A DNA stretch of 63,682 nt, counting the filler. It is 4 parts of 4 records of this genome, joined end to end, with 100 filler letters (N's around TTAATTAATTAA, not from the genome) between each part and the next. Parts side by side here need not be neighbours in the genome. Positions count along the whole stretch, not along the records: positions 28,993 to 56,894 come from SRR2962707_1741; 3 more parts are not named here. One strand, written 5' to 3'. Both the position numbers and the translations under genes were made by a program. Below, in pieces: positions 34,746 through 53,626 of the stretch (position 1 is the first letter of the stretch; every line of letters starts with the position of its first letter). The notes beneath the pieces are model-generated. The model saw nothing but the letters and a program-made list of their open reading frames with translations. It had not been told where the DNA came from and searched no databases.

Positions 34746-35057
34746 TCAAGCAATTGGCCTCATCCGGTGACAAGAAGCATAAGCAATTGGTTTTCTAGTT
34801 TGTATTGCCGCAGGACATCCTCGTTTGTCGAAGACATAGCCGTTCTTTTGTGATTCCCAGCACGCCAATTCGCGAGGTCGATGTGGCAAGGACCTTGCCA
34901 TCCTTGCCGTCCTTGCCGAGCGCAAGCATGCGATCTTTCGATTGAAACTGGGCTTGAGGACGGTCATGCTGGTCATCTCCGTGCCATTGTCGGAGACAAT
35001 CGTGCAAGCCCCGCCCGTGTATGAGGTTTCCTATGTTGTTTGTGAAAGTATGAAACA

Positions 35058-36769: not shown

Positions 36770-38650
36770 CTAACGCGTCGTATCCAGCACAAGGTCACCT
36801 GTTGTGTCGTCACGGACCAAGCTTTTCGGCTTGAAGTATTCAAGATCCACCGGTCGCGAGGCGATTCTGCGACCGTCATCCAAGATGAATACAAAACGAA
36901 AGCGGTGACGAGATGACTTGGCGGCTTTGAGCTCAATGCGCCAAGAAGCGTGCACACTGTTGTTCAATGTATCCTGGATCGGCAAGGCGATCTCGTAGTT
37001 GGAGCCTTTTAGACGCAGATCAAACGGCTTGGTTCGCCCGCTGTCGCGTTCGCCGCCCTCACCGCATTCGGCCTCGAAGCCAAGCAGCCCGACTATCAGA
37101 TCCGTGGCAAACCCAGCGATTTTCGTCTGAGTTGCTCCACTTTCACCCTGCCCGTAGATCTCAAGCGTGCCTTCCAATGGCAGTAAAATCCAGCCTGAAG
37201 GATCCAGTTTCACCTTATCTACCAATTTGCCGTATGCGCCTTGGGCCTTCATATCTGCCAAGCACTCCTCATTGCTGGATTTGCAGGACTGTCCGTCGCT
37301 TTTTAGATACTTTATATCTACGCCGGCATTGACCAGATCGGCTTCGAAATTAACTGTAATGCTGGTTTCCGACAGCGATCCAAGTTGAACTGACTGCGTG
37401 ATTTCGCCTCCATCAATACTGTAGTTCAGTTCGGATCCGCTAACTTGGCCCCAGCCAAAATCCTGAACCAACAATTCGGCATCAAATGAGGGTGCCCCGC
37501 AAGTTTGAAAGCTTGATGAGACTGGACTGATGATATGCACAGCAGGACTCAGGTCAGGTTGGCTTTTCTCTATGGCGATATAGGCTTCCTCAATTCCTAT
37601 AGCGCTCGGCGAATTGTTTTCAATCTCGACAAGGATTGGCACAGGAACGATTTGGCTACTTTGGCCGAGAAATCCTTCCTCGAGGTCAATGTTGTCATCA
37701 GGAAAGTCCTCGGGCTGTATAACGATGTTGGAATTGCCTCTCCAAACGTCGCGAATGCGTTCATTTGCCAGTTTCAATTCGAGCACCTCGCCATTGGAGC
37801 GCGCTGCGTAGTCGAGCACCCTGAAGTCGCCATAGTTTTTTCGGCGTGCCCAAGTGGAATCCGAAATGACATTAATTTTTATGTCGTCGGCTATGTCGAA
37901 ATCATCGGAGATGGGTATCAGTTGGAAGCGGCGGGCCGTTTCCGGCAAAATGTGGGCTGAGCCAGGTATTTTGTTACCGCTTGCCCAATTGGCGACGTAC
38001 GCCGAGCGGCCAGGTAGATAGACAGTACCTGTGCCCTCTCGTTTTCCGCCGGCAAAGCTGCCATCATAGACTGCGCCGCTGGCATCCACATAAAGTCCGT
38101 TGCCGTGCGGCATGCCAGAATCAAAATCGCCGGTGAATTGGTCTCCGTTCGGGAAATGAAGGCGGCCTTTCCCATGGGGCAGGCCATTATCCCATTGGCC
38201 TTCATACATTAGGCCTGAGATGTGTGTGAAACTACCCAAACCCTGCGGTTCACCAGCCGCCAAACGGCCATTATAGCTGGCTACGGTGGATGCCGGATCG
38301 GAGACTGCGCCGCCTCTAATGCGCCAAGTCAGAACGCCTTTGCCGCTGATCGTGCCAGAGGTAAGGCCCGAAGTGTCATCGGCTATCCAAGAGAGGTCGA
38401 GTTGTTCGGTGGAGAACGGATCGCGGATTTCAAAGATGAGCCGCTTCAGTTCACGATCTGCTCTGTCCCAGACAAGTTGAACCCATCGGCGCGCCGACCG
38501 TTCGCTGGCGGCGGAAAATACGGCTGCGTAGGAGAATGCAGCACGCCGCTCGATCTTTGGCAATGTGGCTTCCGCTTGTGCAGGCAAGGCTGCCGCGGCG
38601 CAAAGTGAGCACGACAGGGTAAAAATCAGTGGCCAGATTAACTTTCTCAT
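36770..38650 (-). CDS. Exported MORN-repeat protein with unknown C-terminal beta-rich domain
   Basis: Signal peptide; YEGQWDNGLPHGKG, FTGDFDSGMPHGNG, YDGSFAGGKREGTG; ATGA overlap with upstream gene. Confidence 0.85.
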   Translation of the reverse strand: MRKLIWPLIFTLSCSLCAAAALPAQAEATLPKIERRAAFSYAAVFSAASERSARRWVQLVWDRADRELKRLIFEIRDPFSTEQLDLSWIADDTSGLTSGTISGKGVLTWRIRGGAVSDPASTVASYNGRLAAGEPQGLGSFTHISGLMYEGQWDNGLPHGKGRLHFPNGDQFTGDFDSGMPHGNGLYVDASGAVYDGSFAGGKREGTGTVYLPGRSAYVANWASGNKIPGSAHILPETARRFQLIPISDDFDIADDIKINVISDSTWARRKNYGDFRVLDYAARSNGEVLELKLANERIRDVWRGNSNIVIQPEDFPDDNIDLEEGFLGQSSQIVPVPILVEIENNSPSAIGIEEAYIAIEKSQPDLSPAVHIISPVSSSFQTCGAPSFDAELLVQDFGWGQVSGSELNYSIDGGEITQSVQLGSLSETSITVNFEADLVNAGVDIKYLKSDGQSCKSSNEECLADMKAQGAYGKLVDKVKLDPSGWILLPLEGTLEIYGQGESGATQTKIAGFATDLIVGLLGFEAECGEGGERDSGRTKPFDLRLKGSNYEIALPIQDTLNNSVHASWRIELKAAKSSRHRFRFVFILDDGRRIASRPVDLEYFKPKSLVRDDTTGDLVLDTTR

Positions 38651-41600
38651 GGCTTGTTAACTCCCTCGGTTAAGTTTTCTATCGGCTCCATGCTGATGTT
38701 AGCCAAGGAAGCGGCAATTGTCCTGACGCTAGCCGGGAAAAACCGTACCTCGCCTTCTGTGCCTGAAATGGCCAAGGTCGTGTTTCCAACCCAAGTCATA
38801 TCGTAATAACGCATGGTTTGGCCGGTGTTCTTCGTCATCTCTGCGGTATAGACCTTATGATCGGGGCCATTGACGCCCCAACCGTACATGTCAAGTCGGC
38901 CGTCGGCGGTCATTAGGGCGAGAAGTGTGCCGTCGGGTGAAAAGGCGACACGTAACATCTCTTTTTGCGGTTGGAAGTTTTCAAGCGACATTACCTGCTG
39001 CAACGCCGTTCCAACAGCACCCGTGGAGTAGATCGGCACTAGTGAGCCGAGATTGTCCGCTGTAAGGATCCGATTGCCGTCGGAGCTGACCGCAACCGAG
39101 GCGGTGCCTGCCGGTCGTCCAGGTCGGTCTGGGCCTGCAACAATCACGCGGGCGAAAGCACCTGTCAGGGCATTCCATTCGAGGATCGATCCTTTGCCGT
39201 GAGAAACATAAAGCTTGCTGCCGTCAGGTGAGAACGCTGCGCCCCATGGCTTGCCGTGTTCTGCGCGCAATTCCGCCAGCGCTACATCGTCTGGAATAAT
39301 GCGCTCAGCCCGATCGAGCGTTCCTGCCGAGGAATCGAAGGTGTACCAGTCAAACCAGGTGTCGTTGTCGCCGATTACGACGATCGTGTTGCCGCTAGTA
39401 AGCACCTGCTTCTGGTTTCTGCCGACGGGTACGCTGGCAACGAGTTTCGAGCCGTCGAAGACAGACAGCAGATTATCAGCGTCGCCATCTGGTTCTTTTA
39501 GAAGCACCGCGAAGCTGTTGTCGGCAAGTGTCGCGCTGCTGACAGCAATATGTGTAGGAAGAACATTCGCGCCATCGGGAAGGATGAGCGGCTGAGCGGT
39601 TGTTTCGCCCGATGGCATCCACTCGACCAATTGGCCAGCGATAACCGAAAGTACCTTGCTCCCTTCTGGTGCGATGGCAGCGATGTCGTGAGCGCTGTTG
39701 AAAACAGGCACAACTGGCGCGTGTTTGCCAGTCACATCGTGGATGTGGATCGGAGTATTACCTTCCACATCTTCATCGCCGACGATAACAAGTTTTTCCC
39801 CTCCTGCCATTATAGCGACTAAGCGCGCAAGGGAGTGGGGTAAGTAAACGCGGATACGTGTACCAGTCATGCGACCGTGCGCCTGCTCAAGATAGGTTGC
39901 GCAGACGGCGTTATCAGCGCAATTGGCAACAATAAAACCAAGCGTTAGAAATTTCACGTCACCAAGGTTTATTGCGCCTATTGGAAGCTTCTCAAAGCCC
40001 GCCATTTTTTCCGCTAGCCTGTAAAGTCCTGCGCAGTCGCGACCGCCAGCGAGCACGAAGTGGTCTACAACGCGAAGATGGATTTGGTCGGCACTGCATT
40101 GCTGATCGGAAGGAAGGGGGACTGTGAAAGTCTGCGAAAATGTGCCGGCCTTCAGGTCCGATTCTGTGATAACCAGTTTGCCATTGTCGATAGTAAACCA
40201 TCGTGCGCGCGCGTCGTCGGTAAGCCCCCAATAATCGGGGCTCTCGAAATCTTCAATGACCTTGATGTGGTGCTGGCAGTCTAGGTCTCCGGCGCTAAAG
40301 TCGCAGGTGACACTCCGGATGCCGCCGTCAATGGGCACAGCCCAGGAAAGCCCGTTAGGAGAGGAGCGGATTTTCGAACGGCGAGTGTCGTTAATATCGA
40401 GTTTTATGGCGCGAAGCAGATTGTTGTCGACATCTATGAAATTAATCTGACCATCATAGTGGAGTACCGCGAGATTGTCTTCGTCTACGCGAGCAAGCCT
40501 TATGATGCGGTTTGATGAAGAATTGCCGCGGAGTGGTTTGATGCCTGTGTTCGACGATGTTATCTTACCTGTTTTGAGATTGATGGAATAGATATTGGCA
40601 TCATCCGAACCGGCAAAGATCTTGCCATTTTTGGCTACCAGATTTGACCGGATGTCTCCATCAAACTTAAGTGCCTTGCCAACTGAGCTCGGGTTGCGCA
40701 GCGCCGCATCGAGAATCAGGTCACGCGCAACAGGGCCGTAGGACGTATCGAGAATGGCGAGCGCGCTGCGGCTGGCGAAACCGTAATCGCCGCTCTCAAG
40801 CGCAATGCGAGCTTGTTCCATCGTCTCCGCGTTTCGGGCAGAGAGATTGCTTTCATTCCACAGATAGCCGAACGCGCCGGTGGCGATGGCGCCCAGCATG
40901 GCAGCAGTGGCAAGCGCCCGACGCACTCTCTTGGCGTTCCGTTTCTGGGCCGCCTCGGCGTCGCTTTTTCCCTTGCAGGCGCGGATGAAATCCACTTCAG
41001 ACACTGACAATTGCTTGTTGAAACGCTCGTCGTCGAGCAGTTTCAGCGCATCCTTCAGTGTGTCGCCCATCAGGCTAAGACGGTCGTCCGATCGAGCATT
41101 GGCGTCCCAGATGACAGCTTGCGCGCGCACGATATCGATACTTGCCAGAAGTGGCCGGTCTTCCTGCAGCCAGCCATTTAGCTCCGTCCAGCAGCGCAAA
41201 AACGCTTCATGGGCTGGCTCCACCGTCGCCTCGCCGCTGATCTGGTCGCGATCGGTCGCAAGCAGGCGCTCCTTGACTAGAAGGTCGATCATCGGGCGAG
41301 CTTCCCGCGGGATCTGATCGAGCGCAGCCACATTTCGTCGCGGCTCGCCGGTCACCGGATCTATTCCTGCGGTCCAGGGAATGAGGCCGCGCTTCAAAAT
41401 TGCGAGATTCGCCTCGCGCCTGTTTGGCAGGTTTGGATCATTTTTAGCAAATTCGAGGACGCGATTGACCGCTGACTCGATGCTGCCTTTAAGGCCGCCG
41501 ATCGCCTCATAGTCATCCACGGTGATTTCGCCAGCTTCGGCATAATCGTCGTAGAGGCGACGCAGCGTGTAGGCGAGGAGTGGCAGCGTGTCTTTGGCGC

Positions 41601-42873
41601 CGTCGCGATCCACTTCTTCCAGTAGTTGCGCTACGAGATCGGAAGAAAATTTCAGCATGGTTCCACATTGCGAGAAGCGCCGCGCCGGACCCTCTATGAT
41701 TTCCTTAAACGCGCCGCGCGGAATGCGGATGAGACTAAATGTAGTCAAATCCCGGCCATTAAACGCCTCGTCATGCTGTAGCCTTTCAAAATCCGCGGAC
41801 CGGATGGAGAAGATGAAGAAGACTCGTGAGCTGAAGCGCTCTGCTAATATTGCCAGGATGTCACGGACGCCCGATGTCCCGTGAGCAACATCCGAGAAAT
41901 AAAGCGTTTCAGCCTGGTCGATAGTGATCACCAGTTTCGGAGTGGCGCCCAAGCGTTTGTCCACCGCCTCGAGAAGGCGCCCAACATAGATGCCGATAGC
42001 AGAGGCGCGGTCGGCATCCAATGCCGCCTTGATCTCGCCCTTGGCGACGGGCTCGCCGGCTTCACTCAACGCATTGGCAAGTGCTGTCGCAAATGTTGCG
42101 CCGGTGCCAGTATTCTGATGGTCGGGGCGGACCGGCGGTAGCACGGCGAAACGGTCTGTCTCTCGCGCAAGGCGCGGCAAGAGGCCGGCTGCAATGAAGG
42201 AGGATTTGCCCGAACCGGACGCCCCGAGTACGACGAAATGTGGTGGCGAATCCTGTTCCGACAATTTCCGCATCTCGGCCAGCGCCTCGGCGATTTCCGC
42301 CGACCGGCCGAAAAAGGTTCCGGCATCTTTAGCATCGAGCGCCTGCAGTCCACGATAGGGTGCGCGTTCTGGATCGTGTTCCGGCGGCCAAGGAAAATAG
42401 TCCGGGTTTGCGTCGGTCAGTTGCAGGCCCTGGAACAGTCGCCTCAATCCCGAGGTTGCATATGAGATTGTGTCTCGGCGGTGACCCAGCGTTTCGATCT
42501 CGATGTTGCGGCGCGGGCCCGGCTCGAGAAGGTTGATGAGTTGGTATTCTGCGGTCAGCTCAGCCGGCAAGTCATTGATATCGATTTCGTCGATCAGCAG
42601 TGCGATAAGCGGCTTGCCGAGACTGATTGCGGCGATCAACTCGGTGCGTGACCAATCGGATTCCATCCAGTTTCGGGAGATGATGAAGATTACGACGCGG
42701 CAACTGCCGGTAGCAAGCTTAAGTGCCCTTTGCCATCGCTGGCCACCAACAATGCCGCGTTCCTCGTCGAAATCGAGAAAAATGTTGTTCCAATTATTTT
42801 CGATCAGCCAGTCACGGATCGCAATAGCGTGATCATTGTCTTTGCTGGAATGGCTGATGAATATTTCGCTCAT
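38647..42873 (-). CDS. TIR - STAND (nSTAND1-like) NTPase - TM - WD40/beta-propeller protein
   Basis: IFISHSS, WSRTE (TIR Glu); PYRGL, GASGSGKSS, IDQAE, LPLL, HEAFLRCW; hydrophobic ALATAAMLGAIATGAFGYLW; AFSPDG repeats. Confidence 0.9.
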   Translation of the reverse strand: MSEIFISHSSKDNDHAIAIRDWLIENNWNNIFLDFDEERGIVGGQRWQRALKLATGSCRVVIFIISRNWMESDWSRTELIAAISLGKPLIALLIDEIDINDLPAELTAEYQLINLLEPGPRRNIEIETLGHRRDTISYATSGLRRLFQGLQLTDANPDYFPWPPEHDPERAPYRGLQALDAKDAGTFFGRSAEIAEALAEMRKLSEQDSPPHFVVLGASGSGKSSFIAAGLLPRLARETDRFAVLPPVRPDHQNTGTGATFATALANALSEAGEPVAKGEIKAALDADRASAIGIYVGRLLEAVDKRLGATPKLVITIDQAETLYFSDVAHGTSGVRDILAILAERFSSRVFFIFSIRSADFERLQHDEAFNGRDLTTFSLIRIPRGAFKEIIEGPARRFSQCGTMLKFSSDLVAQLLEEVDRDGAKDTLPLLAYTLRRLYDDYAEAGEITVDDYEAIGGLKGSIESAVNRVLEFAKNDPNLPNRREANLAILKRGLIPWTAGIDPVTGEPRRNVAALDQIPREARPMIDLLVKERLLATDRDQISGEATVEPAHEAFLRCWTELNGWLQEDRPLLASIDIVRAQAVIWDANARSDDRLSLMGDTLKDALKLLDDERFNKQLSVSEVDFIRACKGKSDAEAAQKRNAKRVRRALATAAMLGAIATGAFGYLWNESNLSARNAETMEQARIALESGDYGFASRSALAILDTSYGPVARDLILDAALRNPSSVGKALKFDGDIRSNLVAKNGKIFAGSDDANIYSINLKTGKITSSNTGIKPLRGNSSSNRIIRLARVDEDNLAVLHYDGQINFIDVDNNLLRAIKLDINDTRRSKIRSSPNGLSWAVPIDGGIRSVTCDFSAGDLDCQHHIKVIEDFESPDYWGLTDDARARWFTIDNGKLVITESDLKAGTFSQTFTVPLPSDQQCSADQIHLRVVDHFVLAGGRDCAGLYRLAEKMAGFEKLPIGAINLGDVKFLTLGFIVANCADNAVCATYLEQAHGRMTGTRIRVYLPHSLARLVAIMAGGEKLVIVGDEDVEGNTPIHIHDVTGKHAPVVPVFNSAHDIAAIAPEGSKVLSVIAGQLVEWMPSGETTAQPLILPDGANVLPTHIAVSSATLADNSFAVLLKEPDGDADNLLSVFDGSKLVASVPVGRNQKQVLTSGNTIVVIGDNDTWFDWYTFDSSAGTLDRAERIIPDDVALAELRAEHGKPWGAAFSPDGSKLYVSHGKGSILEWNALTGAFARVIVAGPDRPGRPAGTASVAVSSDGNRILTADNLGSLVPIYSTGAVGTALQQVMSLENFQPQKEMLRVAFSPDGTLLALMTADGRLDMYGWGVNGPDHKVYTAEMTKNTGQTMRYYDMTWVGNTTLAISGTEGEVRFFPASVRTIAASLANISMEPIENLTEGVNKP

Positions 42874-42891
42874 AGTCGGTTAGCCACTTCT

Positions 42892-44220
42892 TCATTCAGC
42901 AAAAAGGCCGATCGTTTGGCGTTTGATGACCGGCTGAGTTTCTTCAAAACTTACATAGCCCCAGCGCCCCTGCACTTTGACTGGCGCGAAACCTTCACGG
43001 TAGCGAAAGCCGTCTTGGAAGACCGCGCCGGTTTTATCCCCAATAGTGCCGTTCTCAGTCACCTCGAGGAAGCCGAATTTGCCATTTTCGTACTTGTAGA
43101 GCGCGTAGCCTTCCCAGAAACCGTAGATGCGATCCAGCTCCTCGAGCGCTGACCCTGCGTAGACCTCCGACAGGTCCTTGCGTAGATACATCAAACTGTC
43201 CGCATTCTCTGATTGTCGATTGGCAGCGATAAGCTGATTATCCGATTCGCGTAGCCAAGTTAGTTCGTCGGAGATAGCCATTGCGCCGTCGCAGCGGCTG
43301 AGGCTTCGGACGAGGAGATCTCTGATGCCGCTTTCACCGAACCTCCCGTAATTTGCATATTTTTGAAGAATGCCGAAATCATAGAGAAAATAGCGACCGC
43401 CCGTATTCCGGCAGTAAATCGTTGTATCGCTGAGCCCCTTATGGCGGCCTATGATAGGGTTAGTCCATACTCTGTAAGATTTTGCTTCTTGGTATTCGTC
43501 AACGTCTCCATCAGAATCTACATAAATACCGATAAAATCTTCTAAGAGGCCAATCAACGATTCTTTACCAGCGCGGATAATAACAAAGGGGCCGATGGTC
43601 TCTAATTGGAGGTTATAAGCTCCTTTTTGTAAAAAAAATTCACCATTTTCTAATCTAAATTGCGCACTTTTGAAATTCAATTGATCAGAATTTATCAATA
43701 CTGGAGTTTTGAGCGATCCATCATTTTTAAAACCGTAAGCATCAAAGATATGCACACTGCTTTCGGGCCGGGTTGCAGCCGCGAAAATGCCGTCGCTGAC
43801 ATCCGAAACTGTCACGAATAATTGATTGTTGATACGGCGGCCAACTCGATCGATCAGGAGCCAATTTTGGCCTTGTCGCACCGCAGCATAGCCGCTGGAA
43901 AAAGGGCGTGCTTCCTCATAGCGTGCCTCGATTCGCAATTTGCCGCCTGTATCCACAAAGCCCCACTTGCCGTCGATTTCGACGGCAAAAAGGCCTTCAG
44001 TTCCTTTTTTGAGCTGGGCGAACCGCGGTTCGACTATCCAGGCACCATGTCGATCAATGAGGCCCCATTTGTCACGCAACATAACCGGGGCGGCGCCCTC
44101 ATTGAAATGTCCAGCACTTTCGAACCGCGCATCGATGACGAGCTCGACGGCTTGCGCTGGTGTGCACTGGAACATAAAACCAAGCGCTGAGAGGATTGAA
44201 AGAATAATCCTAACTTTCAT
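42892..44220 (-). CDS. Exported WG-repeat protein
   Basis: Signal peptide from ATG 44220 (GGAGG RBS); FNEG..PV....KWGLID, KWGFVD, KFGFL, RWGYV repeats. Confidence 0.87.
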   Translation of the reverse strand: MKVRIILSILSALGFMFQCTPAQAVELVIDARFESAGHFNEGAAPVMLRDKWGLIDRHGAWIVEPRFAQLKKGTEGLFAVEIDGKWGFVDTGGKLRIEARYEEARPFSSGYAAVRQGQNWLLIDRVGRRINNQLFVTVSDVSDGIFAAATRPESSVHIFDAYGFKNDGSLKTPVLINSDQLNFKSAQFRLENGEFFLQKGAYNLQLETIGPFVIIRAGKESLIGLLEDFIGIYVDSDGDVDEYQEAKSYRVWTNPIIGRHKGLSDTTIYCRNTGGRYFLYDFGILQKYANYGRFGESGIRDLLVRSLSRCDGAMAISDELTWLRESDNQLIAANRQSENADSLMYLRKDLSEVYAGSALEELDRIYGFWEGYALYKYENGKFGFLEVTENGTIGDKTGAVFQDGFRYREGFAPVKVQGRWGYVSFEETQPVIKRQTIGLFAE

Positions 44221-44496
44221 GCACGCCTCCACCATCCTTGTAAGAGAAAGATTATACATCAATAAGAATTGAAATAATATGTAGTTTCATGCTCGATCAT
44301 ATTAGGAGTAAATTGATTTCTTAAGTTTGCCGGGTGTTGACGTGTCCTGAGCCGCTTAAGCTGGTCGGGCAACGGAGAATTACCGGACCATTTGTCTTCC
44401 GGGACAATTCTGGGTTAGGGCCGTTGATCCCGGTAGTCGTCGCGGCGTCCTGCGAAAGTCGCGAGCGTAGATTATCGTTGACCTGAGCAACTGTCT

Positions 44497-45424
44497 TTAG
44501 GTTTGATAGCTGGTACCGATCTTCATCATTGCATTGATACGGACCAGCAATCGTCGAGCAACGGCGATGATTGCTGTTTTCGCAGCTTTTCCATCGTCGC
44601 GCATTTGGCCATAGATGGCTTTCCAATGTGGATCCCACCGAATGGCGACGAGCGCTGCCATATACATCGCGGCGGACACGTGGTCGGCCTCCATAGATTG
44701 CCCGCTTGCCCTTGTAGAGCCCCGACTCCCTGGCGTGAGGTGCCAAGCCAACGAGACTGGCAATCTGTCGCCGGTTGACTTGCCCAAGTTCCGGCATCGA
44801 AGCCATTAGATGACAGGCAGTTTGCGGCCCGACACCGGGGACCGATTGCAGTCGCTGGTTCTGCTCGTTCAGATCCTCGTGCGCGCCGATATGTGCGTTG
44901 ATCTGTTTGTGCAGCGCTTCTCGGCGCTTCGTCAGTGAACGGATCGAAGCTTTGATATCCTTGGTGATAAAAGCGTCATCGGCAACAGAGAGACGGTTTT
45001 GCTCAGCCGTGATCATATTCACAATGTCGTCCCGTCTGGCTTGAAGGTCGTGAAGACGCTGGCGGTGCAATTGGATCGGTGTGGCGCGTTCGGGGCGAAG
45101 CGCCTCTCCCATCGTGCATAGAATACGAGCGTCCAATCTGTCGGTCTTTGCCAGCAAACCAGCGGCACGGGCGAATTGACGAGCCCGCAACGGATTCACG
45201 CGCGCATAGGAAACACCACTGTCCTCAAGGCATGCGATCAGAACGCGTTCATATCGGCCTGTTGCCTCAAAAATTAGCATGACGTCGCCAGTCAGGCCTT
45301 GCGCCCATTTGGTCAAACGATCCCGTCGATTGGAAACACGGGTGAAGCGCTGATTGGAAGCGGTGAACACATCGATCCAGTCCTTGGCGACATCGACACC
45401 GATATAGGTCTTGGGTAAAGTCAT
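44497..45424 (-). pseudogene. IS110 DEDD recombinase/transposase with frameshift near 44668
   Basis: YIGVDVAKD, FEATG, KTDRLDA, SVPGVG, ESG; the conserved tail MYMAAL...AVARRLL is in a different frame (ORF 44497-44787). Confidence 0.88.
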
Positions 45425-45570
45425 GGAGCCTGTCCTTGTCATGCGGGATCGGTCTCCATAGAGCCGCCCCAAGCAACTGTTCAGGCTGAACACACGATGC
45501 AGACGAGCCCCAAGCTCAGGTACGGTGTCGCAAGCACCTAGACCCAATCGGGGTCTCGTCTGCACATACA
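45425..45570 (-). ncRNA. IS110 bridge RNA (target- and donor-binding loops)
   Basis: Stem 45498-45511/45550-45564 encloses guides matching the flanking target; second loop has ACAGTTGCT and GACAAG matching the end junction. Confidence 0.82.
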
Positions 45571-45707
45571 TTTATGTACGTATCAAAGAGACAAGATCCG
45601 AGTTCCCTCCAAATTGCGGAAGATTCTTGGGTTTTATCAATTCTTCTGCGTGCAAGGCGGACCACAGTGCCGTCGCTAGATGATGATCTTGCTCACCAGT
45701 CCAACGA

Positions 45708-47246: not shown

Positions 47247-50200
47247 ATGATCTCGGGATCGAGGAAGCTGCCGTCGCAGCATGTGACAATACGCGTGCCT
47301 TGGCACGACGGAGGCTGGAACGGCCGCGTGTGCACCTCCCCCTCGACAAACACCTCTTGCCTCGTCCTAAGCCGAATTGCTGCCGGAAAGCGCGACGACC
47401 AGGACGAGCAAGCTGGACAGCTCTTCGAGGAGCTTGCTACCTCTGTCATGCCGCCGTGCATTGACGAGCGGGTTAGCTTCATGGCCGACCACGACCTCGT
47501 CGTGAAGAAGCAGCATCCCTACAAGTCGTCGAGCCCCGAGAGCCATGGGCACTTTGGCGAGACCACGCTCAGGCTCGAAGCCTTTTCAGCGGCCTGCATT
47601 CCCTTCGGATGGATGCTGAAGTCCAACGTGGAAGGCGACGAGAAGTCAGGGGAGGTCGGGAAAGCGGCGGCACTGCGCCTGGGCTACGAGCCGGAACGCG
47701 AACCCGAACTCTCCTTCAAGACCGGCTGGGTCCAGGACAAGGCCAACCAGCTCGTCATGCTGGACACGTTCTTCGGCGCGCTGGAGCCCGGAACCTCCCT
47801 CTGCTTTTTCTACGCAAAAAAGACCCCGCTTTCCGAAAGCGCTAGCCGCGTGATCATCGGGGCGGCACGCGTGAAAGGAATCGGCCAGTATACCGAATAC
47901 GCCTACGACGCGCCGGGCGAACTGCAGGGTGTTCTATGGGAACGGTGCGTTCGGCATAGCCTGCGTCCCGGTGGCGCAGACGGGTTCCTGATGCCCTACT
48001 ACGAGGTGCTCGCCGCCGCGGATGCCGACGCTGGCATTGCGGTCGACGAGTGTGTCGCGTTCGCGCCAGACGATCAATTCGACGCGTTCTCGTACGGGTC
48101 CGAGCATCTTAGTCATGACGGCGCCATTGGGTCGCTGCTCGCCTGTGCCGGCGCGCTGAGGGCGTCGGCAAAAGTGATCGAGACGGACATATCGACCGCG
48201 CTCGCCTGGATCGACCGGGAGGTCGCCCGCCTTTGGACCGCGAGGGGAGTCCACCCCGGGCTCGGCAGCGCGCTGACTGCCTTCGGATTAGAGCATGGGG
48301 CGTTGCTCGCCCACGAAATCGCGAGGGTCGGAAGCAAGGAGGGGGAGATCTTCGACGCCTTCTCGTTCATTGACGGGTTCGCCGCCGCGTCGAAGTCGTT
48401 CCCGCAAGCGGAGACGTTCGGCTTCGGATCCACATACCGCGAGAAGTGGCGGGGGCTGGCCAAACCTCGCCGGCAGCTTCTCGACCTGATTGCCCGGTGC
48501 AGCCTCAATCCCGATCAGGCGATCAGGGCCTACCAGCCGAGCCAGCGCAACTACTCGGAAGAGACGACGGATGCCGAGATCCTGGCGAATCCCTACCTGC
48601 TGTTCGAGCGTGACGAAGCCGCGGCCGACCGCACAGCCTTTGGCATCATCGACCGAGGCGTCTTCCCGGCTGATGCGGTTCGCGCGAAGGTCCCACTGCC
48701 GCCGGGAACGGTTATGAGCGACGGCATCGACCGCCGCCGGGTGCGCGGGCTCGTGACCGAACTGCTTGAGCGGGCAGTACAGCTGGAAGGTCACACCCTG
48801 CTGCCGCGGAGCTGGATCGTGCGACGCGCGCTCGACTCTGCCCTGGAGCCGCGCTGCGCGGTCGACGAAGACGTCCTCGAGATGGCGGCCGCCCATCTCG
48901 CGCAGACCCTGGAGGAGGCTAAGACTTCGGGGGGCGAGCCCGCGCTGAAGTTGAGGCGGTACGGCTCGGCCCGCACAGCGATCACCAACGCCGTGCGCAA
49001 GCGAGTGTCGGGCAAGCGGCATGCTCTCGCCCACGACTGGCGCGCGCTCGTGAACGCCGCTTTACCCGAAATGGACGTCGGTCCTGACGCTGAGACCGAG
49101 GAGTTGGCCCGCCAAGAGAAGACGGCCGCGCTCGAACAGCTCGCGTCGGGACGCTTCTCGGTGCTGGTCGGGCCCGCAGGGTCAGGCAAGACCACGCTGC
49201 TCAAGGTCATCTGCGACCTCCCTGAGGTCGCGGCGGGTCGCGTCCTCCTGCTCGCCCCGACGGGCAAGGCGCGCGTCCGCCTGGAGGAGGCCACCGAGCG
49301 CCTGGGCGAGGGCATGACCATTGCCCAGTTCCTGCAGCGCCACGAGCGCTATGACGGGTCGAGCGGTCGTTACTTCCGTAATCCGGAGGCGCCCCGCGAG
49401 AAGGGCTATCGCTCCGTGGTGGTCGACGAGTGCTCGATGCTCACAGAAGACCAACTCGCGGCGCTCATTGATGCGATCGAGGGAGTCGACAGGCTGATCC
49501 TGGTCGGCGATCCCCGCCAGCTGCCGCCGATCGGCGCCGGCAGGCCCTTCGTCGACATCTGCCGGCATCTAGCGCCTGATGACGCCAAATCGAAGTTCCC
49601 CAAGATGGCTCCCGGATACGCCGAGCTAACGATCATCGGACGGCAGCGGGGTCACGACAGAGGCGATGTGCTGCTCGCCAGACAGTTCAGCGGTGAACCA
49701 CTTGATGCAGGCGCGGACGAGGTCTGGGATGCCCTCCAGCTAGGCACGCTGTCGCACGTCCGAACCGTCCGGTGGAGTCTGCCCAGTGATCTGGAACTCG
49801 TCCTCACGGAAGAACTGGTGCGAGGCCTGAAGCTGACGGACGGATCAGATCAGAACGGTTTCGAGCAAAGCATCGGTGGTAGCGAGTGGGAGGGCCACGT
49901 GCTGTTCTGGGCGCGTCGGTCCGGTGAGACCGAAGGCGGCGCGGCGGCGAGTTCGCACGACTGGCAGATCTTATCGCCAGTTCGTGCAGGTCTATCAGGC
50001 GTCGAGGCCATTAACCTGGCTGTGCAGCGCCGCTTCCGTAGCAAGGTGCGTGACAAGGCCTTATCCAGATACCCCAAGATTCCGAAGCCTGCCGGGCCGC
50101 AGGGCGTGCTCTGGGGCGACAAGGTCATCAATCTGCGCAACAACGGGCGCCGACGGACCTATCCGCACCAGGACCGACCTTATATCGCAAATGGCGACAT

Positions 50201-51005
50201 TGGTGTGGTCGTCGGGGGCTATAAAACAGCCAAGATGAAGTTCCGCCCAAAGGATCTCGAGGTCGAGTTCGCGAGCCAGCCGGGGATCAAATTCACCTAC
50301 TTTGCGGGCGAGTTCTCCGGCGAGGAGGGATCACCCGATCTCGAGCTCGCCTACGCGCTGACAGTGCACAAGACCCAAGGGAGCCAGTTCGGTCGATCGT
50401 ACCTGGTTCTTCCGCGCAACTGCCGCCCACTTTCGCGAGAGCTGCTCTACACCGCCATCACCCGGCACCGGGATGAACTCGTCATCCTTCACGAGGACGA
50501 ACCGGGGGCGCTACGCCGCTACGCGGATCCGTCGGCGTCCGAGATCGCGCGCCGGATGACCGACCTTTTCACTGATCCCGGCCCCGTCGAGGTCAAGACG
50601 AGCTCGGGGCCCCGCTTCCTCGACCAGCACCTCCTGCACCGCACTAGCAGGGGTGAGTTCGTCAGGTCGAAGTCCGAACTAGCGATCGCCGAGAAGCTGC
50701 ATGGGATGGGCATCGCCTACGTATATGAGCAGCCCGTGTTGCTAGGAGGCAAGACCCGATGGCCCGACTTCACGATTGCCGACGACGAGTCCGGCGTCAC
50801 TTACTACTGGGAGCACCTGGGAATGCTGTCGGACCCGCAATACGCGGCGCGATGGCAGACCAAGCGAGCCGCATACCTCGCGGCCGGAATCCGGCCGATT
50901 GAGGAGAATGTGGGTGGGGACGTGCTAATCGAGACACGCGAGCTTCCCGGCACCGGACTCGACATGAGTGAGGTGGAAAGGCTCGCGAAGCTGATGTCGT
51001 CCTAG
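47247..51005 (+). CDS. RecD-like SF1B helicase with large N-terminal region and C-terminal PD-(D/E)xK-like nuclease
   Basis: GPAGSGKTT, LAPTGKA, VDECSM, GDPRQLPPIG, TVHKTQGSQF, YTAITR; tail RSKSE..IA...YEQP...PDFTI...WEHLG. Confidence 0.9.
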   Translation: MISGSRKLPSQHVTIRVPWHDGGWNGRVCTSPSTNTSCLVLSRIAAGKRDDQDEQAGQLFEELATSVMPPCIDERVSFMADHDLVVKKQHPYKSSSPESHGHFGETTLRLEAFSAACIPFGWMLKSNVEGDEKSGEVGKAAALRLGYEPEREPELSFKTGWVQDKANQLVMLDTFFGALEPGTSLCFFYAKKTPLSESASRVIIGAARVKGIGQYTEYAYDAPGELQGVLWERCVRHSLRPGGADGFLMPYYEVLAAADADAGIAVDECVAFAPDDQFDAFSYGSEHLSHDGAIGSLLACAGALRASAKVIETDISTALAWIDREVARLWTARGVHPGLGSALTAFGLEHGALLAHEIARVGSKEGEIFDAFSFIDGFAAASKSFPQAETFGFGSTYREKWRGLAKPRRQLLDLIARCSLNPDQAIRAYQPSQRNYSEETTDAEILANPYLLFERDEAAADRTAFGIIDRGVFPADAVRAKVPLPPGTVMSDGIDRRRVRGLVTELLERAVQLEGHTLLPRSWIVRRALDSALEPRCAVDEDVLEMAAAHLAQTLEEAKTSGGEPALKLRRYGSARTAITNAVRKRVSGKRHALAHDWRALVNAALPEMDVGPDAETEELARQEKTAALEQLASGRFSVLVGPAGSGKTTLLKVICDLPEVAAGRVLLLAPTGKARVRLEEATERLGEGMTIAQFLQRHERYDGSSGRYFRNPEAPREKGYRSVVVDECSMLTEDQLAALIDAIEGVDRLILVGDPRQLPPIGAGRPFVDICRHLAPDDAKSKFPKMAPGYAELTIIGRQRGHDRGDVLLARQFSGEPLDAGADEVWDALQLGTLSHVRTVRWSLPSDLELVLTEELVRGLKLTDGSDQNGFEQSIGGSEWEGHVLFWARRSGETEGGAAASSHDWQILSPVRAGLSGVEAINLAVQRRFRSKVRDKALSRYPKIPKPAGPQGVLWGDKVINLRNNGRRRTYPHQDRPYIANGDIGVVVGGYKTAKMKFRPKDLEVEFASQPGIKFTYFAGEFSGEEGSPDLELAYALTVHKTQGSQFGRSYLVLPRNCRPLSRELLYTAITRHRDELVILHEDEPGALRRYADPSASEIARRMTDLFTDPGPVEVKTSSGPRFLDQHLLHRTSRGEFVRSKSELAIAEKLHGMGIAYVYEQPVLLGGKTRWPDFTIADDESGVTYYWEHLGMLSDPQYAARWQTKRAAYLAAGIRPIEENVGGDVLIETRELPGTGLDMSEVERLAKLMSS

Positions 51006-51011
51006 CAGGTT

Positions 51012-51049
51012 GCCGGTGGAACGGCCGCGCTGGCGGCCGTTCCACCGGC
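51012..51049. terminator. Perfect 17-bp inverted repeat after the helicase stop
   Basis: gccggtggaacggccgc-gctg-gcggccgttccaccggc; no U tract, so function uncertain. Confidence 0.5.
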
Positions 51050-51155
51050 GGACCTAGGTCGGCTCCTGACGGATGCGATCGTTCACCGCGATCGATGCGA
51101 ACGCCGGCTAAGTCGCAAACCCCGTCGTTCTTGCCAGTTGCCGATGTGAGTCCCG

Positions 51156-51216
51156 AATGTCCGCTTTTGGGAGAGGCAATGACAACAACAAGCGACCAGT
51201 TGGGGGCGCAAGGCGG
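51156..51216. repeat. Dispersed ~61-bp imperfect palindromic repeat, copy 1
   Basis: aatgtccgcttttgg...gggggcgcaaggcgg; similar copy at 54990-55051. Confidence 0.55.
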
Positions 51217-51489
51217 AAATGATTTGCGCTTCGGGGCCGTAAGCCGTCAGGCAGCTTTTGGTAACGAAGCGGAGAAGGGAGACTTTGGCCTTGTCAAGCT
51301 CGGCGTCACTTCCGGTCCAAAACCAACGTTTGGAGCGTTCATAGCAAGCGACCGCTATCGCCCTCATGCGGGACCTAAAAGTCACGGTGCTGGTTCGAGG
51401 AAAGCAGACATTCGTTCCCGATGCTAAGTAGGGCAGCCGCTAGAGTAGAGTTTATCGCAGATCGCAGCAGGGCGCGAACGCCCAACTAG

Positions 51490-52440
51490 ATGGTCGCGAC
51501 CATCTTTTTCGTAGTTTTGTACGATAGGACTTGGCGGCGCGCCGTTCCCGCGATTTGCGCGGCTATCTCCCAGCTGCGCCCCCCGGCAACACGAGGCACG
51601 CCGGACAATGCCGTAGGGAAGTACAAGGACGATGCTACACCTATCTATATCCTGTCCTATAGCGGCGTCGGCGTGCCTGCTGTAATCGGCACACGGTTCC
51701 AAGCTCTGGCAGCCGCTCTAGAGATCGCACCGGCGCAAGCGCGGGTGTTAGCCGCGACCTGGGCCAGCGCAGGGAACGCTGTCGGGCGTGCCGTCCCTGA
51801 ACCAGGCGATGACAAGACGTTGCTTCTGGCCGAAGCGGTCATGGGCTTCCATTTCGCCTTCGCGGCCGGCAACCGTCGCGATGCCTTGGTTCGGCTCCAT
51901 AGGACGGTGCTGCAAGTGCGGGGTGTAATCGCAAACGCAGGTGACTATACCACACATGTCACGGCCAGCGGCCCGGACGACGGGCGGTGGCGGCCTGAGA
52001 TCATCGCCATTGGTCGGACTCTTAAGGTTTTGCCCGGCGAGAGCCCCGAGGACTGGTTGAAGAGGGCCCGGAGCCTTCTCGGATCAAGCCTCATCGGAAC
52101 CTCGACCATCGGTCAGCGCCTGAAGTTCAACAACAAGCTTGTCCAGGTTCTTGCGGAAGTATCCGCTACTGCTTTACCGGCAAAAGCGATCCATGCGGTA
52201 AAGGGCCTGGAGTTTCCGGCCGTGTGCGTTGTGCTCACCGCCCAGACTGCGGGCGGTATCCTGGAGGTCTTGAGCGGCGGTGCATCGGACGCCGACACGG
52301 TAGAGGAAACCCGCAAAATATATGTCGCCGCTTCCCGCGCCGAACGACTTCTGGCCATCGCGGCGCCGAAGAGCCGCGTCGCGACTTTGAAGAAGTTACT
52401 GGATGTCGGCGGACATTCTGCGGAGATCATCGTGCTTTGA
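51490..52440 (+). pseudogene. 5'-truncated UvrD-like helicase (C-terminal half only)
   Basis: IHAVKGLEF and YVAASRA present; no Walker A/B. Confidence 0.75.
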
Positions 52441-53626
52441 ACACAACGCACCGAGTTTCGAAAAGATGGACCGACGCGGCGCTCGAATTACAGATTTGTT
52501 CGCTCGAGCAGACGATTGAGCAGTGGGCGGTCGAGCACGACCTGTGGTTCGACTGCAGCTTCACCAGCTACTCGGCTCACAATGGAGGGGAGCCTGGTGC
52601 TCCGGCTGTCGTCACGGTGATCTGCACGGGGTGCTGAGCGGCGAAGATGGCGAAGGATACGAACCCGCCTTCACGCGCCTCGTAGATGGCATCGGCTACG
52701 AGTACGAAAACATCGACGGGGTAACTATTCACTTTTGTCCGACGAACCCGGACCTCGCCGCTGCATTCGAGGACTACTTCCACTGGCAGTGGGTCTGCAG
52801 CCTGATTACCGACGACACAGCCGACATCTATCACGAGCTCTACGAGCAATTCGCGGCGCACCCGGACCGCTTGCAGCGTCTCCATTGGCGGGAGTTCGAG
52901 ATTTTGTTGTTTCGGCTGTTCCAAAATCAGGGTTTCGAAACGCTGCTGGGCCCTGGTCAGGGTGATGAGGGCGTCGATCTACGCCTTGTTCAGCGGTCGC
53001 CTTTGGGCGACGTTCTAACCTTCGTCCAAGCGAAGCGCTATCGAGCCGATCGCCCCGTGAAATTGCCCGAGGTACAGGCTCTCTACGGCGCCGCGCAGCT
53101 CGACCATGCCGACAATGCGTTGTTTGTCACGACCTCGGACTATGCGCCGGCACCGAAACGATGGGCGGCCCGGTCCGATGGATTTATCCAGCTGGCCGCC
53201 GCAGACGAGGTGGTGAAATGGTGCGCCGGTGCAAAGGCTGGCGTTATCTTAGATCGGGCATCATTGGTGGCTCGTGATCGGGTCGAGGGCTTGATCCATG
53301 CCGCAGCGCAGGGCGCGCGCGGGCTAGTTGTCCATGCATCGGGCGGTTGGAATATCACCGACAATTGGTTCGCGCTGGTGCTTAAGGAGACCAAGCACGC
53401 TGCTCTGCTTATGGGCGTGCCGGCCGTGGTGTTCGATCATGATGGTTATGGCCAAATTGGCCGGCACGTGCCGAAACTCGACCCGACCACCATCGATCTC
53501 TTTCGGTCGGAAAATGTCTGGCGCGCTACCCGTTCAAACGACAATGGGCGCATACGCTATTGGGACGGGCAGCATCTCTTCAGTGCCTGGAATGGCCAAC
53601 CTTGTAGCTTCAACCTCATGGACTGA
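52437..53626 (+). pseudogene. Mrr-like restriction endonuclease domain protein, frameshift near 52625
   Basis: WREFEILL, GDEGVDL, VQAKRY, FVTTS; N-terminus from TTG overlapping the upstream stop is in another frame. Confidence 0.75.

Follow-up and report, generated by a model that had tools for sequence, protein, structure and literature searches.

An IS110-group insertion sequence with a bridge RNA of IS621 logic in its left end, inserted in an IS3-family inverted repeat

The minus strand of a 63.7-kb stretch of DNA (63,682 nucleotides, analysed as a whole and called here the window) carries a recombinase gene broken by a frameshift, with a long leader upstream and a very short right end downstream (Table 1). 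According to published descriptions, elements of the IS110 group have a long left end (LE), a short right end (RE) and none but short subterminal repeats, and those of the IS1111 group carry the bridge or seek RNA in a long RE and have subterminal inverted repeats of 7–17 bp. We saw the layout of the IS110 group here: an LE of 169 nt, in which the RNA resides, and an RE of 11 nt, too short to accommodate an RNA. The model R1 matched the LE only; thus, membership in the IS1111 group was ruled out. (IS4321/IS5075, which Partridge and Hall reportedly described in 2003, are said to be of the IS1111 group; their RNA would lie in the RE, their subterminal repeats are long and their targets are repeats of the Tn21 family.) We are highly confident that the region is a copy of an IS110-group insertion sequence with a bridge RNA (also called seekRNA) of IS621 logic in its LE.

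Table 1. Coordinates of the element, its RNA modules and its target in the window
Feature	Position	Strand	Remarks
Whole IS110-group element	44486..45595	-	1110 bp including both copies of the CT core; from alignments with L001, L003 and L004
Left target (LT), CTCGGAT	45596..45602	-	
Core dinucleotide CT, left copy	45594..45595	-	Single CT in unoccupied sites
Left end (LE), 169 nt	45425..45593	-	Holds -10-like box and bridge RNA
-10-like box, CATAAA/ATAAAT	45570..45576	-	Putative, from consensus-level match only
Target-binding loop (TBL) module	45499..45563	-	Outer stem 45563-45550 / 45511-45499 with bulged A at 45554; inner hairpin 45538-45524
LTG, ATTGGGTCT	45540..45548	-	
RTG, ACCTGAG	45515..45521	-	Followed by handshake C at 45514
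Donor-binding loop (DBL) module	45427..45487	-	Outer stem AGCCTG 45487-45482 / CAGGCT 45432-45427; inner hairpin 45470-45445
LDG, ACAGTTGCT	45472..45480	-	
RDG, GACAAG	45435..45440	-	Followed by handshake G at 45434; overlaps Shine-Dalgarno-like AAGGA
Recombinase, first frame, 252 codons	44669..45424	-	DEDD domain and catalytic Ser motif
Site of 2-bp deletion (frameshift)	44666..44673	-	Relative to L001, L003, L004 and contigs of runs X1, X4 and X18
Recombinase, C-terminal part in other frame	44497..44668	-	Stop TAA 44499-44497
Right end (RE)	44486..44496	-	11 nt after the stop: AG, ACAGTTG = LD, core CT
Right target CAGGT(CA)	44479..44485	-	Tip of IS3-type inverted repeat
Relic of IS3-family terminal inverted repeat, 42 nt	45594..45635	-	83% alike to the right inverted repeat (IRR) of L056's IS3 element

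The recombinase frame of the window was recognized by the Pfam families PF01548 (7e-17) and PF02371 (3e-13); the NCBIfam model NF033542, ‘IS110 family RNA-guided transposase’ (cut-off 140), gave 148.8 bits for the fragment in the window and 189.6 bits for the recombinase of another copy, L001. The motifs GVDVAKD, FEATG, KTDRLDAR and ESG all reside in the first frame, upstream of the frameshift. Alignment of the L001 recombinase with the IS621 chain 8wt6_A extended over the full length (E 2e-30), with all five catalytic residues (D/E/D/D/S) aligned and identical; the catalytic residues of IS621 are described as D11, E60, D102, D105 and S241 (PMC11208158), and the numbering of the PDB chain appears to be offset by +2.

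The frameshift in the window copy is due to a deletion of 2 bp, which affects the last ~58 codons. Two extra bases were seen at this site in L001, L003 and L004 as well as in contigs of the three runs covering it (X1, X4 and X18), and the length of intact relatives is 1112 bp. As the deletion puts the recombinase out of frame, the window copy is probably non-autonomous; intact copies coding for 309 amino acids (L001–L003) reside in Hoeflea and Rhizobiaceae genomes. The initial annotation spoke of a compact (~1.1 kb) programmable recombinase orthologue. The small size of the element and the intact orthologues are in line with this description, but the window copy itself is frameshifted, and 309 amino acids and 1.11 kb fall within what has been published, at the small end (300–460 amino acids for IS110 recombinases, PMC11208160).

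The boundaries of the element were established independently of the guides. Resemblance of the window to four other copies and to contigs from four public runs (four studies) ended at 45595/6 on one side and at 44478-83 on the other, and it was only between these limits that the contigs were like the window. In further copies with differing flanks the left junction (L001, L003, L004, L034) fell exactly at CT/TGTC and the right junction (L001–L004, L035–L038) exactly at GTTGCT/, where the slash marks the joint; in the window the two junctions read CTCGGAT-CT/TGTC (45602-45590, minus strand) and ACAGTTG-CT/CAGGT (44494-44481, minus strand). Unoccupied sites found elsewhere have the form ...CGGGT-CT-CAGGTCA with a single CT; when a site is occupied, CT is present at both ends. 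The pattern YYGGGTCTCAGGTCA had five perfect matches in five genomes (one match for the reversed control pattern), and two loci, L054 and L056, extend the left and right flanks of the window over one CT. These sites represent target homologues from other genomes; an empty allele at the window’s own locus was not found. The circle junction ACAGTTG-CT-TGTC and the target CTCGGAT-CT-CAGGT, as initially proposed, agree with the other copies, the contigs and the unoccupied sites alike.

Left targets of other copies were GCAGCGT, AACGGGT, CTCGGGT and GTTGGGT. The natural landing site has the form nYYGGGT-CT-CAGGTCA; these are the 14 bp at the outer end of the terminal inverted repeats in a group of IS3-family elements. 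The CA that follows the RTG-paired CAGGT was kept at every right junction examined, because the target is the tip of an IS3 repeat. Beside the 42-nt relic of such a repeat in the window there was no IS3 transposase gene. The flanks past the relic had no counterpart in the genomes G001–G004; among 300 genomes of the same family, with two candidates scored per genome, the flanks showed distant gene-level matches only. A search in plasmid DNA yielded just seven weak matches (9–11% coverage), and no repeats of at least 40 nt exist within the window.

All four guide strings were present in the leader at the coordinates originally assigned to them, in the order LTG, RTG, LDG, RDG, each pair of guides flanking an inner hairpin within an outer stem. 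LTG pairs with LT and core at eight of nine positions, as had been claimed (six Watson–Crick pairs, two wobbles and one mismatch); the match scores of RTG, LDG and RDG are 7/7, 9/9 and 6/6. The guides of the window copy are identical to those of intact copies. How often such matches arise by chance was assessed with 60,000 leaders generated by a first-order Markov model, equal to the real leader in length and composition. The LTG criterion was reached by 19% of the random leaders, thus the LTG match is weak when taken alone; the fractions for RTG, LDG and RDG were 2.3, 0.1 and 2.9%, respectively. Not one of the 60,000 leaders had all four matches, and the product of the marginal frequencies is ~1e-7.

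In IS621 the 5′ guides carry top-strand sequence and the 3′ guides its reverse complement (PMC11208160, PMC11208158). The guide strands of the present element obey this rule. The loops also follow the logic of IS621: the target loop comes first, the 5′ side of a loop (8–9 nt) pairs with the bottom strand and the 3′ side (4–7 nt) with the top strand, the core being included in each.

Furthermore, considering 12 relatives with distinct guides, we saw that guides and flanks covary: none of 20,000 permutations attained the observed total. Mean scores of cognate combinations were 7.3/9 for LTG-LT and 6.6/7 for RTG-RT, against 4.8 and 3.9 for non-cognate ones, and the RTG match was 7/7 in 10 of the 12. 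Two loci, L017 and L020, are variants with core CC and have the corresponding CC/GG in LTG, RTG and RDG. There were also poor fits (RTG 3/7 in L009 and 4/7 in L004, a decayed copy; LTG 6/9 in L015). The final one or two bases of the relatives’ LDG mismatch the core, and RDG formed just four contiguous pairs in 8 of 18 scored rows; a discontiguous RDG pairing in the style of IS621, tried by eye, did not fit. The guide/flank table leaves aside L013, which lacks an RE, L016, whose leader is truncated where the contig ends, L018, in which an LE could not be recognised, and L010 and L014, both with cut flanks. In a 71% relative, L040, a shift by 1 nt was seen to improve the fit of LTG to the left flank.

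The bases next to the 3′ guides have the pairing expected of handshake guides, which in IS621 pair with non-cognate rather than cognate DNA (PMC11208158). The C after RTG, invariant in 19 of 19 sequences, is complementary to donor G7, itself invariant, but not to T/C7 of the target; the G after RDG pairs with position 7 of the target (C in 11 of 12 relatives, a G.T wobble in the window’s element) and not with donor G7. Both bases conform to the published rule.

Wobbles between LTG and LT deserve a closer look, as the initial annotation took them for natural evidence of wobble tolerance. Across sites, LT positions 1–2 are mostly mismatched with LTG. A U.G wobble at position 3 was present at four of eight occupied sites; the G.T at position 6 was seen only at the decayed site of the window; it may have arisen by later mutation of the site and is weak evidence. 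Wobbles at the LTG-LT interface had been published already for IS621 (PMC11208158) and ISPpu10 (bioRxiv 10.64898/2026.03.19.712850).

A search with the model R1 gave a match of 147 bits in the LE, at 45422-45574. In the structure alignment A4 (27 sequences, 25 of them distinct) 89.3% of cells were paired, with the caveat that the alignment was fitted to the model and is hence biased towards it, and 33–48% when partners were slid; double changes occurred in 17 of 32 pairs. Compensatory changes were found in 8 of 13 pairs of the TBL outer stem (95.8% of cells paired) and in 7 of 10 pairs of the DBL inner stem. No covariation was seen in the DBL outer stem CCUG/CAGG, where two pairs are invariant, and the outermost two pairs of this stem showed no conservation. 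The predicted secondary structure is thus conserved with compensatory changes, the DBL outer stem being uninformative.

A promoter made of TTGCTT, a spacer of 16–17 bp and CATAAA/ATAAAT would be assembled only at the circle junction, where RE and LE meet; the -10-like box ends 6–7 nt ahead of the TBL stem. The junction -35 motif TTGC[TC][TC] was present in 17 of 17 elements, and a -10 motif with at least four of six matches at 16–17 bp in 14 of 17 (these are matches to consensus only). We found no minus-strand promoter in the integrated copy. The conserved spacing fits the -35 box suggested at the outset, but a junction promoter is a known feature, published for IS621 and ISPpu10 (bioRxiv 10.64898/2026.03.19.712850). 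Contigs from the four runs contained neither a circle junction nor an excision joint; contigs of two RNA libraries cover parts of the element, a kind of cover which is not readable as transcription.

No bridge-RNA family of Rfam matched the window. The sole Rfam match was to RF02234 (sX15) and lay antisense to the leader, in plus-strand orientation; with 34.3 bits it is below the threshold of 55 and does not make the region a member of the family. The model R1, in turn, matched over its full length on the Xanthomonas plasmid pXCV183, at 116391-116533, minus strand (40.9 bits, E 5e-10). On this plasmid the sRNA asX7 was mapped at 116528-116459; asX7 and sX15 were verified by Northern blot in 2011 (PMC3300014). 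The R1 match has the strand and place of asX7. It is followed by an IS110-like N-terminus (MNGIGIDV...), and an IS3-family transposase gene adjoins. In comparison with sX15, the relationship is distant and the Rfam model describes the opposite strand.

Among known systems, IS621 of E. coli (Durrant et al. 2024, PMC11208160; Hiraizumi et al. 2024, PMC11208158) is described with a homologous recombinase with conserved D/E/D/D/S, an RNA in the long LE, a target loop followed by a donor loop (5′ guides of 8–9 nt pairing with the bottom strand, 3′ guides of 6–7 nt with the top), a CT core, handshake bases, an outer stem with a bulged A, and guides preceded by a G and a GU linker, all of which resemble the present element. 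IS621 also has a promoter split over the RE-LE junction, of which the present element has a putative counterpart. The differences are a shorter protein (309 amino acids versus 328 residues in the PDB chain), an RE of just 11 nt, the frameshift of the window copy, a contiguous RDG of 6 nt in place of the discontiguous 9-for-7 pairing (PMC11208158), and the tip of an IS3-family inverted repeat as target, where IS621 uses REP sequences. ISPpu10 of Pseudomonas putida (bioRxiv 10.64898/2026.03.19.712850) has a U.G wobble at LTG-LT, tolerates distal LTG mismatches and has a hybrid junction promoter with -35 from RE and -10 from LE; its targets, however, are REP stem-loops, and the likeness noted here concerns these described features. 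ISEc21 (Siddiquee et al. 2024, PMC11187229), likewise of the IS110 type, has a non-coding RNA region upstream, a promoter created by circle formation and a natural target within IS3-family elements; it inserts in the transposase coding region, at codons around the second D of DDE, whereas the present element inserts in the terminal inverted repeat, 7 bp inward of its outer tip.

Could the window copy be active all the same? The frameshift might be an assembly or sequencing error, it might be bypassed, or an intact copy in the same genome might mobilise this one in trans; the guides and stems are identical to those of intact L001 and L003, the deletion sits in a CG-rich run, and action of bridge RNA and recombinase in trans has been published, in bioRxiv 10.64898/2026.03.19.712850 among others. 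We consider an active copy unlikely, since every one of the six copies and runs compared at the site has the two extra bases, the 63.7-kb window holds no second copy of the element, and at most 32% of sampled window words occurred in any sequencing run.

Two further explanations deny the RNA its guiding role. One would have the target chosen mainly by the protein, through the sequence or shape of the IS3 inverted repeat, the loop matches being a by-product of common descent; the constancy of CA past CAGGT would suit it, as would the contribution of structure to IS110 targeting reported for ISPpu10 (bioRxiv 10.64898/2026.03.19.712850). Yet LTG and RTG of the relatives change in step with quite different targets, with the RTG scores and the permutation result given above, and the CA is accounted for by the IS3 repeat tip being the target, which makes protein-led choice very improbable. 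The other takes the leader for no more than a structured 5′ UTR, or for the target of an antisense RNA controlling recombinase translation, and the guide matches for coincidence. One could cite in its favour that the DBL stem reaches with its 3′ strand right up to the start codon, that RDG overlaps AAGGA, that an sRNA antisense to a related leader is known in Xanthomonas (sX15) and that a promoter-like site exists on the plus strand at 45393-45421, albeit at chance frequency. Given how improbable the four matches are jointly, the covariation of guides with flanks and handshake positions that fit the published rule, this explanation is hardly credible.

We take the leader to encode a real bridge RNA: the strand rule, the boundaries and unoccupied sites, the covariation of guides with flanks and within stems, the homology of the recombinase and the handshake positions agree with the IS621 logic originally assigned to it. 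By analogy with IS621, the LE would encode an RNA with two internal loops, one for the target and, following it, one for the donor; in the latter, ACAGTTGC(T) and GACAAG would match the excised circle where its right and left ends are joined. A complex of recombinase and RNA would unite the circle junction with the target, with strand exchange at the CT core and with the C behind RTG and the G behind RDG as handshake guides. Transcription of the RNA, formation of the circle and catalysis would be expected to proceed as in that system.

The element is an ordinary, well-documented example of the known IS110 mechanism, with no new mechanism in it, and the element or its clade may already appear in the orthologue lists or under the ISfinder names of the papers cited. 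It documents a natural bridge-RNA system of the small end (a 309-aa recombinase, a 1.11-kb element, an 11-nt RE), and the intact orthologues L001–L003 are candidate compact recombinases. With several natural insertion sites, unoccupied targets and relatives at hand, the guide code could be read without experiments. The tip of an IS3-family repeat as target adds another instance of a mobile element homing into a mobile element.

One could speculate, and we do so tentatively, holding it possible though somewhat short of probable, that the clade with the donor ACAGTTG has specialised in parasitising other insertion sequences, with a bridge RNA adapted to the 14 bp at the outer end of IS3-family inverted repeats (at both ends, facing outward) and with the U.G at LTG position 3 as a standing feature, and that asX7/sX15 of pXCV183 are a bridge RNA and its antisense partner. 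If so, Rfam RF02234 would represent the reverse strand of a bridge RNA; thanks to the wobble at LTG position 3, repeat variants with C and with T would be accepted by a single guide; and each insertion, as it splits the repeat of an IS3 copy 7 bp from the tip, should put that copy out of action.

A scan of genome contigs for the recombinase yielded 29 loci, among them those of two Hoeflea MAGs (L001, 98% aa; L002, 97% aa), a complete Rhizobiaceae chromosome (L003, 94%) and Hoeflea (L004, 84%). Element boundaries were assessed independently of the guides, by alignment of copies situated in differing flanks. Identity begins precisely at CT-TGTCTC and stops at ...ACAGTTGCT, after which come CAGGTCA and differing flanks; further partial copies in the genomes of those relatives have identical ends. 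Contigs from four public sequencing runs of four studies were similar to the window only within 44478-44483 to 45595-45596 and unrelated outside. The IS110 element has minus-strand junctions CTCGGAT-CT-TGTC (left) and ACAGTTG-CT-CAGGT (right).

The window ORF was assigned to the IS110 family by Pfam and NCBIfam, and the intact 309-aa protein of L001 aligned over its full length with IS621 chain 8wt6_A (E 2e-30), with five catalytic residues kept. Two base pairs near 44667-44672 that L001, L003, L004 and contigs of runs X1, X4 and X18 carry are missing from the window copy, so that its last ∼58 codons are in a different frame; the catalytic Ser motif is upstream of the frame break. This copy is unlikely to be autonomous. 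All four of its guides are identical to those of intact copies and, in our reading of the alignment, the differences between its leader (the left end, LE, upstream of the ORF) and that of L001 fall outside the guides.

The four guide strings claimed in the initial annotation, two in the target loop (LTG, RTG) and two in the donor loop (LDG, RDG), were all found at their stated positions by direct reading of the sequence, and their assignment, said to follow the IS621 logic, agrees exactly with the published strand rule. According to the available text of PMC11208160 and PMC11208158, the IS621 target loop precedes the donor loop; the 5′ guides pair with the bottom strand, and so read as top-strand LT or LD (left target or donor side) plus core, while the 3′ guides pair with the top strand, being the reverse complement of core plus RT or RD.

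Guides of the predicted bridge RNA and coding neighbours of the IS110 element (window coordinates)
Feature	Coordinates	Strand	Remark
LTG ATTGGGTCT	45548-45540	minus	direct read
RTG ACCTGAG	45521-45515	minus	direct read
LDG ACAGTTGCT	45480-45472	minus	direct read
RDG GACAAG	45435-45440, read downward	minus	direct read
TIR + nSTAND1 NTPase	38647-42873		1408 aa
MORN-repeat protein	within 36770-44262 / 47247-53626		
WG-repeat protein	within 36770-44262 / 47247-53626		
SF1 helicase (AAA_30/UvrD_C_2)	within 36770-44262 / 47247-53626		1252 aa
Mrr-type restriction endonuclease	within 36770-44262 / 47247-53626		

The neighbours in these two intervals resemble a defence island; G+C content at 43.2-46.8 kb (46-51% outside the IS) is below that of the surroundings.

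Chance levels were estimated from 60,000 first-order Markov leaders matched in length and composition. An LTG matching at 8 or more of 9 positions, with wobbles counted, turned up in 19% of them, so the LTG match is weak alone; the RTG 7-mer was reached by 2.3%, the LDG 9-mer by 0.1% and the RDG 6-mer by 2.9%. The four guides jointly occurred in none of the 60,000 (product of marginals ∼1e-7).

Leaders of 19 elements aligned well. For 12 relatives with distinct guides, loop strings were compared with their own and one another's flanks. Cognate scores were 6, 9, 8, 8, 7, 8, 7, 7, 6, 8, 7, 7 (of 9) for LTG-LT and 7, 6, 7, 7, 7, 3, 7, 7, 7, 7, 7, 7 (of 7) for RTG-RT, versus means of 4.8 and 3.9 over 132 non-cognate pairs each. 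Summed, the cognate scores came to 167; permutations averaged 109.4 (sd 7.3), and 0 of 20,000 attained that sum. In the elements with a CC core (L017, L020-L023), the LTG has CC, and both the RTG and the RDG have GG. No fit was seen between the RTG of L009 and its own flank (3/7); in L004, a decayed copy, the RTG is altered (4/7), and the LTG of L015 fits poorly (6/9). Since the donor heptamer ACAGTTG is kept across the clade, being present in both loop and right end (RE) at 22 of 24 loci, the LDG match reflects conservation, not covariation. In relatives the final one or two LDG bases mismatch the core (7-8/9), in agreement with the 8-nt LDG of IS621 in the available text of PMC11208158; contiguous RDG pairing was limited to 4 pairs in 8 of 18 scored rows.

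Loci L020-L023 are four copies within one MAG, where core CC replaces CT and the guide core positions are altered in step; the IS621 structure paper, in its available text, describes the second core T as almost invariant (PMC11208158). In L040 (genome G110), a relative at 71% nt identity, the LTG is TTTGGGTCC and the left flank ...CATGGATCC-TTGTCTC (junction near 1470); its guide fits better with the junction set one base leftward, and its RT, CGGGT, is one position off the RTG-predicted CAGGT.

All 19 aligned leaders have C immediately after the RTG, a base able to pair with the invariant donor G7 though not with the cognate target. The RDG is followed by G (at least 90% conserved), for which target position 7 offers C in 11 of 12 relatives and T, giving a G.T wobble, in the window IS; with the cognate donor G this base forms no pair. 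These handshake positions conform to the IS621 rule as given in the available part of PMC11208158. Regarding the claimed natural wobble tolerance, eight left junctions were tallied by eye, five from copy alignments and three derived from loose ends of run contigs; LT positions 3-7 gave 31 Watson-Crick pairs, 7 wobble-compatible changes and 2 other mismatches, at sites that are non-independent and with every wobble-compatible change a transition. Position 3 is C (U.G) at 4 of the 8 sites. The position-6 G.T was seen at no site but that of the window, where the flank is a decayed relic, and it may therefore have arisen by later mutation. Wobbles at this interface are already published: the available texts describe G53.T for IS621 (PMC11208158) and U.G with distal mismatch tolerance for ISPpu10 (bioRxiv 10.64898/2026.03.19.712850).

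The leader folds at -76.4 kcal/mol (z -4.3), well under shuffled controls; in the free-energy minimum the two target guides are mutually paired, an arrangement absent from the comparative model. A covariance model of the proposed structure (model R1) matched the window once, at 147 bits, and the loci 26 times. In the structure alignment, which was fitted to the model and so leans toward the proposed structure, 89.3% of cells were paired versus 33-48% with slid partners, and two-sided changes were seen in 17 of 32 pairs. Covarying pairs lie in the outer target-loop stem (8/13) and the inner donor hairpin (7/10); the outer donor stem CCUG/CAGG showed no covariation in this alignment, and its two outermost pairs are unconserved.

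The circle junction would take TTGC[TC][TC], present in 17 of 17 two-ended elements, from the right end. A -10-like hexamer (CATAAA/ATAAAT in the window, CATAAT in L001) lies 16-17 bp from it, with at least 4/6 matches in 14 of 17 elements, and ends 6-7 nt ahead of the first stem. In the integrated copy, no minus-strand promoter emerged from a consensus scan. From the consensus match we infer that the junction would assemble a promoter, a split RE-LE arrangement like that described for IS621 and, in the available text of bioRxiv 10.64898/2026.03.19.712850, for ISPpu10. On the plus strand, 45393-45421 holds a promoter-like TCGACA-17-TAAAGT (9/12) directed antisense into the leader; such sites are at chance frequency here (1 found, 0.8 expected).

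The search for empty alleles yielded unoccupied targets in other genomes, not the window locus's own empty allele. Unoccupied targets read ...GGAGGGAAGTCGGGT-CT-CAGGTCA... (L054 and L056), ...CTCGGGT-CA-CAGGTCAAC... (L052) and ...CTCGGGT-CT-GAGATCAAC... (L039); L054 and L056 extend the window left flank (∼42 nt, 83% alike) and right flank across the single CT. A target-pattern search of five genomes gave 5 perfect and 8 one-mismatch sites versus 1 for the reversed control. The L056 and L052 targets form the final 14 bp of an element with a gene for an rve/rve_3 integrase-core protein and with inverted ends TGACCTGAGACCC... and ...GGGTCTCAGGTCA; from the protein's Pfam domains, and from the likeness of the element's ends to typical IS3 ends, we take it to be of the IS3 family. 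Both IS3-type ends bear an outward-facing target site (G049 C3 332378-392, 333584-598). Judged from these sequences, the IS110 element lands in the outermost 14 bp of IS3-family terminal inverted repeats.

The IS110 element of L003 lies within an IS3 copy (71-81% related), in its left inverted repeat, and that of L004 ∼100 nt past the C-terminus of a diverged IS3 OrfB; the L001 site, GCAGCGT, is unlike the IS3 repeat. Of the IS3 repeat region, no more than a 42-nt relic survives in the window (45635-45594), with the right target part at 44479-44485; no IS3 transposase was found adjoining the relic. Some 10 kb away, at 34953-35003 (minus), a 17-residue match to the IS3 OrfB core (88% identity; tblastn E 8e-5, window alone) may mark another IS3 fragment. 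An RNA-library contig of run X18, from a close relative, departs from the IS110 sequence at 44801 into ACTGACCTGAGACCCAAC..., an IS3-type inverted-repeat tip, so that in this sample an IS3-like element seems to lie inside or against an IS110 copy.

The Rfam family RF02234 (sX15) matched the window at 45432-45574, plus strand, antisense to the leader, with 34 bits, below threshold. Model R1 matched the minus strand of Xanthomonas plasmid pXCV183 with 40.9 bits (NC_007507.1 116391-116533, L057 892-1034); this match is followed by an IS110-like N-terminus, with an IS3-family transposase gene adjoining. The available text of PMC3300014 describes asX7 as a Northern-verified sRNA at 116528-116459 on pXCV183, opposite sX15. 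The match shares place and strand with asX7, whose 5′ end is 5 nt inside it. Given this coincidence beside an IS3-family gene, sX15/asX7 is probably a bridge RNA locus with its antisense transcript, sX15 being the antisense partner.

On sequence evidence, with all testable defining features found, the element belongs to the IS110 group and has a predicted bridge (seek) RNA. It is smaller than IS621 (309 aa, 11-nt right end), and differs from it in its contiguous RDG pairing and its target. Literature searches, which covered papers without their supplementary lists, showed neither this element nor its IS3-repeat-tip target. IS4321/IS5075 reportedly insert in Tn21 repeats, and homing into other mobile elements is already known: ISEc21, in the available text of PMC11187229, inserts in IS3-family transposase genes.
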